NCBI GenBank assembly: GCA_017405225.1
Contig: JAFRAV010000010.1
Coordinates: forward strand, 1,862-65,861
Reading direction: 5' to 3'
Source: Candidatus Saccharimonadota bacterium
GTDB taxonomy: Bacteria; Patescibacteriota; Saccharimonadia; Saccharimonadales; Saccharimonadaceae
DNA length: 64,000 nt
The stretch's first letter is position 1; every line of letters begins with the position of its first letter. Of this stretch, positions 3,300-64,000 are shown piece by piece. The notes below the pieces were generated by a model. The model worked only from the letters and a program-made list of their open reading frames with translations, searched no databases and was not told the origin of the DNA. The position numbers were made by a program, and so were the translations under genes.

Positions 3300-5902
3300 T
3301 GGCCTCGCGGAGAAATGATACTAGAAGAAAGATATTTTTGCTTTGCTTTTCCTTTTGTTTTGCTGCTGTGATGGGATTTTTAATGCAACTATTTATTGGA
3401 CGCGTAAATGCAATTAACCCCCGCTATAATGGGTTCAATGCTGGGGATATTATATCTGATTATGTGATGGCGGATTATACCTCTATGAGTGAAGGTGATA
3501 TCCAGCAATTTTTGAAGTCTAAAAATCCATGCAACGATACCAATCTATCCAAGGCGGCATACTATTCTTGGCATAATTACCACATAGAAAATGGGCATTA
3601 TGTATGTATGGCAGATGAGAGTTTTGACGGTGAGTCGGCCGCGCACATTATTTGGCAGGCGGCACAGGATTATCACATCAACCCAAAGGTGCTAATTGTA
3701 TTGCTAGAAAAGGAGCAGGGATTGGTGACGGATACTTGGCCAAATTCTGATTTGCAATATCGTTCTGCTACGGGCTATGGTTGTCCAGACCACGGAGATT
3801 GTAATGCTGATTATTATGGGTTTAAAAATCAAATTAGAAATGCAGCAGAATTATACCGTTGGATTTTGGATAACGGCTCTAAGTACTATCCTGTAGGTTA
3901 CAATAATATATTATATAATCCAGATTCTGGTTGTGGATCATCTACTGTATATGTGGCAAACCGCGCAACGGCGGCACTCTATCAATATACTCCATACCAA
4001 CCAAATGGCGCAGTATTAGATGCATCCGTAGGACAAGTGGTAGGTTGCGGAGCTTATGGGAATCTTAATTTTTATTATTACTTTACAGAGTGGTTTGGCG
4101 ATACACATGGAAATGAATTGCATGGGATATATTTGCCGGATGGAGTGTATCAGCTAAAAACAAATGAGGGATTAGCGCTCTCATTCACAGGCCCTAATAA
4201 TGGAGATTCCGCGATTATTTCTGACTCGGATAGTAATAATAAAATGCAACAGTTTGAATTGAATCGTGATGGAAAATACTATCGTGTGCGAAATGTGGGT
4301 ACAGGAAAATATTTGGATGTGTTTAATAACGAATCATATAATGGTACAAAGGTTGAGCTGTGGGATGGAAATGGGGGATGCTCACAAAAATGGCTAGTAT
4401 TAAATAATGATTCATGGTATCGCTTGGTATCCGCATGCTCCAGCGAGGCGGCTACAAAATCACTTGACGTATCTGGAGGAGCAATCGGAACGGCAGGGAC
4501 TGAGATTAAAATATGGGAGTCAAATGGCTCAGAGGCACAACAATGGAATCTTGTGAATTTGTCAGCTGCACCAGTTAATAATGGTGAGTACAGTATAAGA
4601 TCTACTGCTGGAAGAGTGCTCGTTCCAGCATCGGAAACTCCAAGTGGTAATGAGAGAATGATAATCTGGGAGAATTCAACGTCAAGTATCAATAGGTATA
4701 GTATTACACGTCTACCAGAAGGCTATTACTTAGCAAAGAATACCAAAACTGGGTTGTACCTTACAGTGAGAGATGCGTCTATAAGTGATGGCGCCGAAGC
4801 TTTATTATCTGAAGACAATATGAATACTTGCGCTCAAAAGTGGATAATAGAGAAGAATGAAAAAGGATTTAGATTTATTAATTCCTGTTCTGGAAAATCA
4901 CTAGATATTAATGAGGGGAAAGTTGACATTAATGGTAATAAAGTCCAAATATGGAATAGCAATTCTTCGGACGCACAAAGATGGATGCTAAATACTCCTA
5001 CTAAAAATCAACCTGTTGCAGATGGTGATTATGTTATTGAATCTGGACTTGGCAATAGGCTTCGGCTAGACGTGGTTGGAAGTGGGATGATTGGTAATGG
5101 AACCAATGTTGATATTTGGACTAGAAACGGTGGCGATAATCAGAAATTTAAATTGAGATACGATGCCAATACCGGGTATTATTCAATATCAATAAGTAAT
5201 GGATATTATTTAGATGCAGCCAACGGTGGATCTAACGGTGCTAATGTTCAAGTTTATCAAAAAGGAGATGGATGTTTCCAACAGTGGATGGTCATCCCAG
5301 AAGGCGAACAATATTATATTGTGTCTGCTTGTGAAAGAAATGCCCTAGATGTGGTTGGGGCTAATATGTCAAATGGAGCTAATACTGCTTTGTGGGCATT
5401 GAATGGTGGAAATAATCAAAAATGGATAGTTAAGAATGCTACATCTGACTTGAGCGGCTCAATTTCAGATGGAAGTTACGTAATTGCATCCAAAATGAAT
5501 AGCAATTTGGTGATGGACATATTTGGAGGGGCAAAGGATAATGGTGGGAATATTGGTATTTGGGGTGCTAATGGCGGAGAAAACCAAACGTATAAAGTAG
5601 TATATGACGCAAGCGACGGGTATTATACAATCCTCAATGAGTGGTCAGGAAGAAGTATTGATGCTACCGGTGGCAGTGCAGCGAATGGAGTGAACTTGGA
5701 GATTTGGTCGCCTAACTCAAGCTGTGCACAAAAATGGGATATTGTTAAAATGGATGGCAACCAACACTATCGTATAGCATCTGCTTGTAATCCAGAGTAT
5801 TCACTAGATGTCGCTGGAGCAGATAATCATAATGGCGCAAACATTTTGCTCTGGAAAAACCATAATAATGATAACCAACAATGGACTTTTATTAAGAGGT
5901 GA
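3299..5902 (+). CDS. Secreted protein with conserved N-terminal domain and four ricin-B (beta-trefoil) lectin domains
   Basis: Signal/TM segment; repeated QxW/QxF motifs; four modules starting DGVY, NGEY, DGDY, DGSY. Confidence 0.8.
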   Translation: MASRRNDTRRKIFLLCFSFCFAAVMGFLMQLFIGRVNAINPRYNGFNAGDIISDYVMADYTSMSEGDIQQFLKSKNPCNDTNLSKAAYYSWHNYHIENGHYVCMADESFDGESAAHIIWQAAQDYHINPKVLIVLLEKEQGLVTDTWPNSDLQYRSATGYGCPDHGDCNADYYGFKNQIRNAAELYRWILDNGSKYYPVGYNNILYNPDSGCGSSTVYVANRATAALYQYTPYQPNGAVLDASVGQVVGCGAYGNLNFYYYFTEWFGDTHGNELHGIYLPDGVYQLKTNEGLALSFTGPNNGDSAIISDSDSNNKMQQFELNRDGKYYRVRNVGTGKYLDVFNNESYNGTKVELWDGNGGCSQKWLVLNNDSWYRLVSACSSEAATKSLDVSGGAIGTAGTEIKIWESNGSEAQQWNLVNLSAAPVNNGEYSIRSTAGRVLVPASETPSGNERMIIWENSTSSINRYSITRLPEGYYLAKNTKTGLYLTVRDASISDGAEALLSEDNMNTCAQKWIIEKNEKGFRFINSCSGKSLDINEGKVDINGNKVQIWNSNSSDAQRWMLNTPTKNQPVADGDYVIESGLGNRLRLDVVGSGMIGNGTNVDIWTRNGGDNQKFKLRYDANTGYYSISISNGYYLDAANGGSNGANVQVYQKGDGCFQQWMVIPEGEQYYIVSACERNALDVVGANMSNGANTALWALNGGNNQKWIVKNATSDLSGSISDGSYVIASKMNSNLVMDIFGGAKDNGGNIGIWGANGGENQTYKVVYDASDGYYTILNEWSGRSIDATGGSAANGVNLEIWSPNSSCAQKWDIVKMDGNQHYRIASACNPEYSLDVAGADNHNGANILLWKNHNNDNQQWTFIKR

Positions 5903-5908
5903 TGGTAG

Positions 5909-7411
5909 ATGATAGAAAAATTTAAAAACAATTTTTCAAGACTTATCGGATGGACATTTTTTTTGGCCTTTTCAATAGTTACCCTATCTGTACTATTTGC
6001 AGATGGGGGAATATACTCATATAATAAAAATGTGCCAATTTTAAGTTTCTTGATTGGCACATTAGTTGCAGCTGGGCTTTTCCTTATTTATCGTAAATTA
6101 GAAAAGAACAAAAAACAAATATCTAGAAAGAAGGAAATATTCATTGTTTCTGCTGCAATATTGCTATTCTTTGCAATTGGATTATTTACAATAGCAGTTT
6201 TGAGAGTATCTCCATCATGGGATGTAGGCCATATCTATGAGGCGGCACTTAGCTTAGCAAATAATGGAGATTTAGGCGGTGAATATAGCTACGTCTCCAA
6301 TTTTCCTTTCCAGGCTTTTTTAGTAGGAGTATTCGCAATTATTATTAAATGCACATCCTGGTTGATTAATCCAAAATTATCACTTATGTTAGTGAATCTG
6401 TTGTTAATTTTGGGTACAATTATATTTTTCTATCTAATTATTCGCAAAACTTTAGGTGCTAAAAAAGCAATTTTTAGCCTCTCATTGTTCCTTTTATTTT
6501 CACCAATACTACTATACACGGTAATTTTTTACACCGATACGATTTCTATGTTCTTTATAACTGGCAGCGTATATCTAGCTCTACTGTTATTTGAAGAAAA
6601 AATATCCAAAATTAAGCTGGTTATCCTCTCAGTAATATTTGGTCTATTTTGTTTTTGCGGCTATCAAGTTAAGGCAACGTCTATTTTTATTCTTATTGCA
6701 ACGGTAATATTTGCACTTTTAATTAAGAAAAAGATTAATATTAAAAGATTTGCTATTAGTGCGGTGTGCGTAATAACTGTTTTTGTGCCACTGTCTTTAG
6801 TTGTAGCCAGTTACACACATAGAATCACTGATCGCTCATTAGAGGTCCCAAAGACGCATTGGATTATGCAAGGTCTAAAAGGCTACGGGGGATTTAATAT
6901 GGAAGATTATACCGATATTACGTATCCTGGACTGGGCGATAAAGAAGAATTATCCAAAAGGCATATTGAAGAAATCAAAAGTCGCCTGGGTAAATATGGG
7001 CCAATTGGTTATGTTGACTTTTTATCAAAGAAAATCTCATTTACTTGGGGGGATGGGACGTATTTTGTAGGAGATAAATTACGCAGAAATCCTGCACACC
7101 CAGAATCTTTAGTTTATCAGATAGTATCGGCAGATGGGAATTATTTCACTAGCTACAATATCTGGATGAACGGTCTTCAAATCATGCTCCTTATTGGGAT
7201 TACTATTGGAGCTTTCCTAACACGCAAAGACCGCTCGCCTATGTCTTTGCTTAAAATTGCATTAATGGGATTGTTTATGTTTTTGCTAGCCTGGGAGACA
7301 AGGTCTAGGTATCTGATTAATTATTTACCGATTATGCTGATACTATTTATATATAGTCTAGATAAAATTGCGCAATTAAAAATATCTGTGAATAAAAAGC
7401 ATATTAAGTAA
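5909..7411 (+). CDS. Polytopic GT-C-like glycosyltransferase
   Basis: More than 10 TM segments; PSWD motif after the first helices; YTDT; WETRSRY. Confidence 0.6.
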   Translation: MIEKFKNNFSRLIGWTFFLAFSIVTLSVLFADGGIYSYNKNVPILSFLIGTLVAAGLFLIYRKLEKNKKQISRKKEIFIVSAAILLFFAIGLFTIAVLRVSPSWDVGHIYEAALSLANNGDLGGEYSYVSNFPFQAFLVGVFAIIIKCTSWLINPKLSLMLVNLLLILGTIIFFYLIIRKTLGAKKAIFSLSLFLLFSPILLYTVIFYTDTISMFFITGSVYLALLLFEEKISKIKLVILSVIFGLFCFCGYQVKATSIFILIATVIFALLIKKKINIKRFAISAVCVITVFVPLSLVVASYTHRITDRSLEVPKTHWIMQGLKGYGGFNMEDYTDITYPGLGDKEELSKRHIEEIKSRLGKYGPIGYVDFLSKKISFTWGDGTYFVGDKLRRNPAHPESLVYQIVSADGNYFTSYNIWMNGLQIMLLIGITIGAFLTRKDRSPMSLLKIALMGLFMFLLAWETRSRYLINYLPIMLILFIYSLDKIAQLKISVNKKHIK

Positions 7412-50137: not shown

Positions 50138-50176
50138 CAAAAACTCCTTATTTTGTCCTTATTATACCACATTAAC

Positions 50177-50250
50177 ATGTGGTCTTCCCAGCCCAAATAA
50201 TTCTCACTACAGTAATTTTAAGTCATACAGGTTTAGCCTTGTCAAAATTA
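50177..50250 (+). repeat. Repeat R, copy 1
   Basis: ATGTGGTCTTCCCAGCCCAAATAATTCTCACTACAGTAATTTTAAGTCATACAGGTTTAGCCTTGTCAAAATTA. Confidence 0.95.
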
Positions 50251-50259
50251 CTTCCAATT

Positions 50260-50297
50260 CCTTATGAAATGAGATAGCTTCGCCTCATTTCATAAGG
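50260..50297. other. Perfect 14-bp hairpin at the centre of a long palindrome
   Basis: CCTTATGAAATGAG-ATAGCTTCGC-CTCATTTCATAAGG. Confidence 0.9.
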
Positions 50298-50307
50298 TAA
50301 TTGTGCA

Positions 50308-50367
50308 TAATTTTGACTAGGTAAAATCCGCTTTAATGACTTAAAATTACCGTAGCGAGAATATTTG
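50308..50367 (-). repeat. Repeat R, truncated divergent internal copy
   Basis: TAATTTTGA-19 nt-ATGACTTAAAATTACCGTAG-CGAGAATATTTG; the 20-mer core is identical to 50685-50704. Confidence 0.88.
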
Positions 50368-50369
50368 TC

Positions 50370-63012: not shown

Positions 63013-63939
63013 ATGAGCAATCCAGATTTGCAATCAAGGAATCATAAAGAAAAACATAGTTCATACAAAATAACTCGTGTTGCCATGGCTTCAGTGCTGG
63101 TGGCTCTTTTGGCTTTTGCTGGATTTGCTACATTCTCCGTAAATGATATCGCTACCACTGTAGAAGACCACGTTCTTGCAAATGTAAACGGAGTTCCAGA
63201 GGCATGGACAAATTATTCTAAAGAATCTAAACTAGAAACAACTATTTCTTCTAGGATAGTCAACAATAGTTATATAGAATACACATTGGCTATCAAGAAT
63301 AACGACAATAGCCACTCTGCATCACTCACGCATTTATCATCTTATGTATCAAATGGCGATAAAAATGGTTTTATTTCCCTAAACGATGATTCATTAGAGT
63401 ACAGTTATTCTGACACGGAGTCTAAATCTTGGAATAATATGAATATTTTAGAGCCAAGCAACAAAGAAGATGGGTTTAAGCTAGAGAAAGATATTTATCT
63501 AGGTAAAGAGGGAACCACAACTGATACAGTCTACTTTAGGTATATTGTTTCGCCATCAGAAGAAGGCAAAATAAGCGATAAGGTATCTGTTTTGGCAAAG
63601 AGCGATTCTGGAAAAAATGAGGTAGCCACAGCAGAAAATGATATAGAATACAATAAACCAGACGAGGTACGCTTGGCTGCTGAGGCGGTTGTACGCGAAA
63701 ACCCAACTGTAGCAAGACAAGATCCAAATGACGAATCTGGAGAATATGCCAAGCCATTAGGCGTAGAATCCAATCCTAATTCTGGTGTTATATCCACATC
63801 GTCATTAGGCTCTGTATTTTTGTCACCAAATTCGTTTGCTGGGAATATTATTATCATACTAGGGATATTAGCAGTTTTTGTGGTCTGTCTTGCGGTTTAT
63901 CTAGTGGCTAGGAATCGTGGGAAAAAGGCCAAGAAATAA
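63013..63939 (+). CDS. Hypothetical surface protein with N- and C-terminal TMs
   Basis: Two hydrophobic anchors flanking an Ig-like beta-rich region. Confidence 0.65.
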   Translation: MSNPDLQSRNHKEKHSSYKITRVAMASVLVALLAFAGFATFSVNDIATTVEDHVLANVNGVPEAWTNYSKESKLETTISSRIVNNSYIEYTLAIKNNDNSHSASLTHLSSYVSNGDKNGFISLNDDSLEYSYSDTESKSWNNMNILEPSNKEDGFKLEKDIYLGKEGTTTDTVYFRYIVSPSEEGKISDKVSVLAKSDSGKNEVATAENDIEYNKPDEVRLAAEAVVRENPTVARQDPNDESGEYAKPLGVESNPNSGVISTSSLGSVFLSPNSFAGNIIIILGILAVFVVCLAVYLVARNRGKKAKK

Positions 63940-63940
63940 T

Positions 63941-63990
63941 ATGTGGTCTTCCCAGCCCAAATCATTCTCACTACAGTAATTTTAAGTCAT
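63941..63990 (+). repeat. Repeat R, copy 3 (continues past the window edge with different sequence)
   Basis: 49/50 identical to 50177-50226, then diverges (CTTGGTTACA versus ACAGGTTTAG). Confidence 0.93.
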
Positions 63991-64000
63991 CTTGGTTACA

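Follow-up and report, generated by a model that had tools for sequence, protein, structure and literature searches.

Silent-cassette gene conversion is the mode of variation of pilE/pilS in Neisseria, of vlsE in Borrelia, of the MgPa repeats in Mycoplasma genitalium, and of tprK and its donors in Treponema pallidum. Small genomes also carry MITEs and long palindromic repeats, among them the Correia elements of Neisseria, the Rickettsia palindromic elements, and REP/BIME. Extreme variation of bacterial surface proteins arises by two main routes, DGRs and cassette-based gene conversion, which have so far been treated separately. The maxima in a survey of DGRs were seven remote or eight tandem target genes, and CPR DGRs mostly had a single target (PMC5758913). 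In the BPP-1 DGR, an inverted repeat downstream of the IMH promotes homing, and the IMH plus the hairpin suffice as a target (PMC3240598). A literature search on DGRs found no description of promoterless VR cassette arrays.

Here, we analyze such arrays starting from a 64,000-nucleotide stretch (the window; contig C26, positions 1862 to 65861) of an assembly of 643,622 bp in 46 contigs. The host genome of the arrays is that of a rumen-type Saccharibacteria. That dispersed silent cassettes, bounded by hairpins and rewritten by a DGR, match one surface-protein gene is well supported. We further think it rather probable that a hairpin module, M, bounds dispersed arrays of silent DGR-rewritten 3' cassettes and that these probably feed the surface-protein gene; we infer both that the cassettes act as donors and what M does.

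The R repeat family and the hairpin module M

A third copy of a repeat, R, had been called at the right edge of the window by the original prediction, and the copy is real. Positions 63940 to 63990 differ from 50176 to 50226 on the plus strand at two positions over 51 nt and from 50685 to 50735 on the minus strand at three, and the chance expectation for 51-nt R matches was zero in 100 shuffles. The copy opens with TATGTG followed by GTCTTCCC..., and, as had also been claimed, it starts right behind a stop codon, with no gap (Table 1). The stop is native to the 308-amino-acid ORF, as the orthologues in two genomes of the same genus, G032 and G009, end alike (...KK-TAA). Contig C26 ends 103 nt past the window and 113 nt after the R copy, which is the outer arm of a module M that runs on to the contig end. 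What lies beyond the copy was deduced from other R copies, sister assemblies, and synteny.

Table 1. Positions of the features discussed in the text (window coordinates unless a contig is named)
Feature	Position	Strand	Description
TAA stop	63937..63939	+	End of 308-aa membrane-protein ORF 63013-63939; element starts at the next base
Window-edge R copy	63940..64000	+	TATGTG terminal motif, 45-nt R (63946-63990), start of linker
Complete M-hp module	50176..50372	+	R 50182-50226, linker, nested stems, apex 50260-50297, R2 about 50335-50372
Silent DGR variable-repeat cassette	50379..50635	+	5' box 50379-50416 (LFTQYGYGDNQDG), TR-cognate part 50448-50630
X remnant	50631..50659	-	First ~29 nt of structured apical segment X
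Inverted element end	50660..50735	-	Half of GTCAAAATTA stem, linker, R copy 50685-50729 and terminal motif
Degenerate outer repeat unit (tatGTCTTCttgGtCTaG..CTTTAATAATATGTA)	50736..50778	-	Within the extra ~560 nt absent from same-genus genomes
Segment X examples	G000 C44:34151-34459, C36:256-468, C46:1-208, C11:3607-3814		Apex of long hairpin

R is indeed a dispersed family, with 49 copies found genome-wide by a 45-nt probe at six or fewer mismatches and 55 found by a looser 31-nt probe. Nearly all copies lie 90 to 170 nt from a contig end and are oriented outward. R ends make up about half of the contig ends, and therefore R is an assembly-breaking repeat; most of the remaining ends are other parts of the same system. 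M repeats explain the fragmentation of such MAGs.

The window-edge copy had been thought to switch to new sequence at a fixed boundary between conserved and variable segments. It does differ from both internal copies after TAAGTCAT, but among the 49 copies the linker that follows takes only three forms: cttggttacagcc is the commonest (30 copies, including that at the window edge), and acaggtttagcc and cttggttttagcc account for 12 and 7 copies, respectively. All three lead into one conserved hairpin. Each linker variant is accompanied by paired changes in the other arm (11 compensatory pairs). The boundary is the junction of two stem segments in one long hairpin and not a recombination boundary beside free sequence.

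M is a hairpin-forming module of approximately 195 nt in which R is followed by the linker, a stem (GTCAAAATTA or its GTCAAAAATA variant), an apical hairpin of 14 bp that is perfect or nearly so, the returning stem, and the inverted arm R2 (...AATGACTTAAAATTACCGTAGCGAGAATATTTGTCTGGGAAGAC). The nested stems of the complete copy inside the window are GTCAAAATTA/TAATTTTGAC and CCTTATGAAATGAG/CTCATTTCATAAGG. For RNA, the free energy of the predicted fold is -86 kcal/mol (z = -14.4); for DNA, it is -53 kcal/mol (z = -13.4). The compensatory double changes, counted across the variants and one copy from another species, fall in 11 base pairs. Polarity is constant, with R facing outward and R2 facing the cassettes. 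In a second form, M-X, a GC-richer structured segment X of approximately 225 nt takes the place of the apical hairpin. X has a z of about -9 on both strands and is present in at least 12 copies, and a short variant lacks exactly 72 nt. We note that one strand of X holds an open frame of 58 (or 30) codons starting MYRASFKKLGYMQPTGRLVSP. An Rfam search of M returned only long-hairpin miRNA look-alikes. Neither Rfam nor ARAGORN gave a match when X, the arrays, and the 400-nt spacer between head-to-head cassettes were searched, the latter program being run for tRNA and tmRNA. M might serve as an insertion end, form a cruciform, or be a selfish MITE.

The sites at which M lies are regular. The 11 nt ahead of GTCTTCCC are conserved as AATAAYATGTG, and TAA precedes the end motif in most R copies. 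An ORF of at least 100 amino acids reading toward R stops no more than 20 nt before it in 28 of the 55 copies, with a sharp mode at 6 nt, and thus the TAA that stops the ORF coincides with the TAA of the terminal motif of the element. The spacer between up418 and dnaJ is 675 nt here versus 109 to 114 nt in G032 and G009, the element from 50176 to 50778 making it approximately 560 nt longer. The outer repeat unit of that element is present upstream of about one-third of the R copies. At the window edge, the 308-amino-acid orthologue in G032 and G009 is followed after 8 to 64 nt by convergent yebC and then uppP. In the MAG, the yebC-uppP pair is found on C13 (2.6 kb), flanked by cassettes and an M module. 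Synteny therefore places the window-edge module at the start of an array leading into C13; it would be the left module of an array located between the 308-amino-acid gene and the yebC-uppP segment. A sister scaffold, L066, joins the window edge to contig C43 instead, at odds with synteny, but sister scaffolds can be chimeric across repeats of 140 to 200 nt, and L066 is probably chimeric inside M.

The M-bounded units might be selfish, nonautonomous, MITE-like elements that acquired the 3' end of a DGR target and dispersed to TAA sites, in which case rewriting would be a side effect and the cassettes would have no role in varying a protein. Long inverted ends, about 55 copies, 97 to 100% identity among copies, and the AATAAYATGTG terminal motif are as expected of such elements. 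So are insertion directly after TAA and the filled versus empty sites within the genus, as both M-bounded elements of the window occupy sites that are empty in G009 and G032. Moreover, M DNA was found in just 2 of 61 related genomes (this one and one other), and many cassettes are decaying. A search of the MAG for transposases with PF01609 (DDE_Tnp_1) and PF01797 (Y1) found no match, however, and a search with PF00589 found a single Xer-like tyrosine recombinase (C6:4360-4893) in a conserved ndk-xer neighborhood. Together with the properties of the cassettes described below, these results make an exclusively selfish origin appear unlikely to us.

Silent cassettes and their template repeat

Past R2, the contig sequence is a tandem array of cassettes of approximately 275 nt in all eight of the eight assembled continuations, and sister scaffolds agree. 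These results support the suggestion that another cassette might adjoin the window-edge copy, and the copy is not an isolated remnant. In a profile search of the assembly, 41 whole or partial cassettes were found; one of the hits is the paralogous tail of a gene on contig C18. Each cassette begins with a nearly invariant 5' box of 38 nt (CTCTTCACCCAGTATGGCTATGGCGATAATCAGGATGG), which reads LFTQYGYGDNQDG, and the 3' end is ...GCTCTCCGTTGCG (ALRC). The cassette in the window ends in ...ALR* and has neither a start codon nor an N-terminal domain. An in-frame N-terminal domain was sought for the cassettes of the MAG, and none was found, with at most 109 in-frame codons upstream. The cassettes are promoterless, and neither that in the window nor any other in the MAG is a VR at the 3' end of an expressed gene.

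The MITE-like reading also has to account for what the cassettes conserve. The DNA of the 5' box is nearly invariant even where cassette bodies share less than 50% amino acid identity, and it equals the sequence of the expressed gene. In addition, arrays without M exist in other species, one of them at the syntenic AsnS-Ldh site. Finally, M, X, and the cassettes add up to 16.7 kb of assembled sequence (2.6% of the assembly), a large investment for a 0.64-Mb genome. We therefore continue to favor M-bounded arrays that probably feed a surface-protein gene.

Sixteen cassettes align without gaps, and they carry the signature of a DGR. At 11 AAY-type codons, the first two positions take all four bases and the third is a fixed pyrimidine, and the residues at these codons (176 of 176) fall within the 15 amino acids that are reachable from AAY. 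Pairwise identity is 0.35 at 42 hypervariable columns, where 0.29 is expected of independent draws, and 0.91 elsewhere; the cassettes have thus been randomized almost independently of one another. The other full-length cassettes, approximately 13, are ordinary divergent paralogues that keep the 5' and 3' boxes.

The TR was predicted blind from the cassette columns before the real one was found. An RVT_1 search of the MAG found no match, and RVT_1 is present in 29 of 36 genomes of the same genus, where the DGR targets are FISUMP-like. By following RT homologues into their contigs, we reached L101, an unbinned scaffold of 1,679 nt from the same metagenome project that encodes a partial accessory ORF, a 374-amino-acid RT (RVT_1, 39.6 bits; 80.5% identity to the DGR RT of G032), and, 68 nt downstream of the RT on the opposite strand, a 183-nt TR. 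The predicted TR was identical to the L101 repeat at 181 of 182 aligned positions. Across the 16 cassettes, adenine sites of the TR were changed in 37.6% of cases and C, G, and T sites were changed in 4.6 to 6.8%, and 295 of the 413 differences are at adenines; the cassette in the window has 16 differences at adenine sites and 7 at others. Nonadenine changes number 2 to 15 per cassette, and therefore young and old copies coexist, many of them old. An enzyme of the system had been suspected next to R, and an RT does exist, but it sits with the TR on this separate 1.7-kb unbinned scaffold. We note that TR codon 30 is TGC in L101 and TAC or TAT in all 16 cassettes and in the expressed gene P0216. 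This fixed G-to-A difference is unexplained by adenine mutagenesis and could reflect either strain drift of the TR or a selected reversion. We also note that many public DGR RT genes of Saccharibacteria are on contigs of only about 2 kb, which suggests that TR/VR repeats routinely break assemblies around DGR RT genes. That the cassettes are inserted cDNA copies was considered and rejected, as the TR does not include the 5' box, whose adenines are invariant.

One array could be followed from end to end. The sister scaffold L062, with 99.9 to 100% identity to contigs C46 and C38, fully resolves one locus in which a truncated R with X is followed by two minus-strand cassettes, a 400-nt spacer, four plus-strand cassettes, and an inverted M. 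The same array was found again in three further assemblies with zero to two mismatches. Because this array is identical in four samples, no ongoing rewriting is visible in it. It might be argued that the arrays are artefacts of assembly or binning, that is, collapsed strain variants of a single DGR target locus, since contigs break at repeats, VRs are hypervariable in populations, and some sister scaffolds disagree. About 50 different unique flanks abut R, however, and whole arrays lie inside unique sequence of single contigs (window positions 50176 to 50778 and contigs C38, C43, C44, and C2). Moreover, the same arrays were assembled identically by two pipelines from four samples. We regard an artefact as extremely improbable.

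Several features of the arrays are recorded here as observations. A spacer of approximately 300 to 400 nt separates head-to-head cassettes (L062:7451-7847; G000 C17:39-338; in part the right end of C42 and C2:13003-13385). It contains several small hairpins, e.g., GAGGCCTACCTACGGGTAGGTCTC and ACTCACACCCATATTCCATTATGGGTGAGT, and an invertible segment would fit its location, which is flanked by inverted 5' boxes; searches of the spacer gave no Rfam match, no tRNA, and no convincing promoter. A guess that an intercassette segment on C2 is an RNase P RNA had no support. An ATG preceded by AGGAGG on C37 was rejected as a start site, as it belongs to the in-frame TGGAM of a 5'-truncated gene copy.

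Of 66 tail homologues, 34 matched Fib_succ_major (FISUMP, PF09603) at an E value of 0.01 or better, the best at 1.2e-10. At that threshold the cassette in the window, P0002, and P0216 had no match, and the C18 paralogue scored 17.9 bits against a cutoff of 33.9 bits. A PDB profile search found nothing, and an AlphaFold model of a 122-amino-acid extended cassette had a pLDDT of 51, too poor for a fold search. A second FISUMP-like surface-protein gene is present at C18:1066-1977 (minus strand) and C25:1460-2602 (plus strand) of G000, with a tail of another type (ALRSYPNNFLYSGRFYGSS...) that resembles the target of the other DGR family of the genus; thyA follows it, not an RT.

An expressed target gene and possible exchange of cassettes

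A target gene had been considered as another possible neighbor of R, but it is located elsewhere. A search for long proteins with the cassette tail found P0216 on L103, an unbinned 4.5-kb scaffold of the same project. P0216 has 751 amino acids, with an N-terminal membrane anchor, a long extracellular part, ...FQAATTGTGGAMSTANSNSPDTFCPAGWQLPYSGTAGDYYDASKSWSYLFTQYGYGDNQDG, and then the VR, and the gene carries the 5' box, VR, and 3' box of the cassettes. Relative to the TR, its VR has 21 differences at adenine sites and one elsewhere, the latter being common to all copies. P0216 is the sole known full-length target with the VR at its 3' end.

Whether L103 belongs to this genome was approached through the gene content of the MAG. 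Although the MAG is rated 96.5% complete, murG, mraY, ftsI, rsmH, and ppa (inorganic pyrophosphatase) were all absent from it by tblastn. All five are located on unbinned scaffolds from the same series of samples, together with P0216 or its downstream flank, and thus these scaffolds are plausibly unbinned parts of this genome. Moreover, the final 140 nt of C37 are identical to positions 4053 to 4192 of L103. The RT, the TR, and the 751-amino-acid gene therefore plausibly belong to this organism, although they lie outside the binned genome, the link being made by sequence matches and the shared sample series. As the bin contains neither the scaffold with the RT and TR nor the full-length target gene, DGR components may be undercounted in surveys that rely on binned genomes.

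One proposal is that this DGR lineage has M as its cis-acting hairpin or cruciform, a counterpart of the inverted repeat that follows the IMH in phage BPP-1, and that M exists to make each array a homing target. TR-VR homology stops at CGTTGCGTCTC and M follows some terminal cassettes; where the 3' end of an array faces M, R2 begins approximately 20 nt after ...CGTTGCGTCTC. In G032, several VRs have a hairpin with a stem of approximately 40 bp located some 35 nt downstream, and these hairpins come in forms with a short loop and with a long apical insert, parallel to M-hp and M-X. A requirement for a hairpin in homing has also been described (PMC3240598). However, M flanks arrays just as often on their 5' side, rewriting has also reached internal cassettes at a distance from M, and the G032 hairpins and M have no sequence similarity. 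Moreover, the actively diversified VR of P0216 has no hairpin within 200 nt (z = +2.3), and as this expressed VR lacks a long downstream hairpin, M is not needed for homing there. We consider a cis-acting role of M in homing decidedly improbable.

Exchange between arrays and the expressed gene is suggested by scaffold L056, from another sample, which shares 99.99% identity with C37 across 7.1 kb. In place of a TR-type VR, L056 carries a divergent cassette, bordered upstream by a shared segment of 190 nt and downstream by the flank that follows P0216. The body of that cassette (approximately 260 nt) equals a silent cassette of L062 save for a single 5'-box base. In L057, the same upstream segment is followed by a further, different tail. 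The pattern fits conversion from a donor to an expression site and is a lead; however, as the join on the upstream side falls within a repeat of 190 nt and L056 and the silent copy have a 22-nt word in common at the downstream join, both an exchange and a chimera are possible. Proteins from other samples also look like mosaics, as P0037 and P0045 have a common 3' half and P0037, P0001, and C33_57 have a common 5' half. Elsewhere on L056, positions 5750 to 7000 (the right part of C37 in G000) are a 1.2-kb noncoding stretch with iteron-like CCCCTGTT repeats, and its neighbors encode a TrwB/VirD4-like coupling protein, a sigma-70 region 4 protein, ATLF, and Bro-N/HTH proteins. The region looks like an integrated mobile element beside a truncated copy of the target gene.

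In the account that we favor, the DGR would home into any cassette that retains a 3' box, whether expressed or not. The invariant 5' box and the 3' box would then allow recombination, such that a silent cassette replaces the tail of the expressed gene, and the cassette repertoire would be added on top of adenine mutagenesis. M would be an insertion and boundary element of the arrays and perhaps also form a cruciform. A stronger version, in which a two-tier system randomizes more than 40 silent 3' cassettes by the DGR and swaps them into the 751-amino-acid gene, and in which M hairpins seed arrays at TAA sites and keep them competent, is possible, and we put it forward tentatively. Swapping would here, too, proceed through the invariant 5' box and through the 3' box, which contains the IMH. 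Already at the descriptive level, silent DGR-rewritten cassettes matching one membrane-anchored lectin-like protein take up at least 2.6% of the assembled DNA of an episymbiont with a genome of approximately 0.65 Mb. If these cassettes act as donors, prediversified binding tails could be stored and reused, which bears on host recognition by Saccharibacteria.

Comparison with known systems

In systems of the pilS, vls, MgPar, and tprK type, as here, one expressed surface-protein gene is accompanied by many dispersed, promoterless partial copies, boxes are common to the donors and the expression site, and the copies take a heavy share of a very small genome. Here, in contrast, the putative donors are rewritten by an RT and the arrays are bounded by hairpin modules of 195 nt, and switching is proposed from sequence. 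Like M, the Correia, Rickettsia palindromic, and REP/BIME elements have a high copy number and inverted ends, lie in intergenic positions hard against gene ends, and break assemblies. Unlike these elements, M is always polar and always occurs with cassette arrays, and neither a cognate transposase nor a RAYT was found for it. Integrons have an attC hairpin after each cassette and an IntI integrase, whereas the hairpins here are at array ends only and the lone tyrosine recombinase is in the ndk-xer neighborhood.

The hairpin of the BPP-1 DGR resembles M in being an inverted repeat near the 3' end of a VR in which structure rather than sequence is conserved (PMC3240598). The BPP-1 element, however, lies within 24 bp directly downstream of the VR (PMC3240598), whereas M spans approximately 195 nt with an optional apical insert of approximately 225 nt, occurs at either end of arrays, and does not accompany the expressed VR. 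DGRs with several or remote targets, such as that of Treponema denticola and those with tandem targets in Stenotrophomonas, share with this system an RT and a TR, adenine-specific TR-VR differences, a VR located C-terminally in a lectin-like domain, and activity in trans at remote sites. Unlike the surveyed DGRs (PMC5758913), the system described here has at least 16 TR-cognate VRs and about 40 cassettes, which are promoterless 3' fragments in arrays. The two routes to surface-protein variation may here be combined in one organism.
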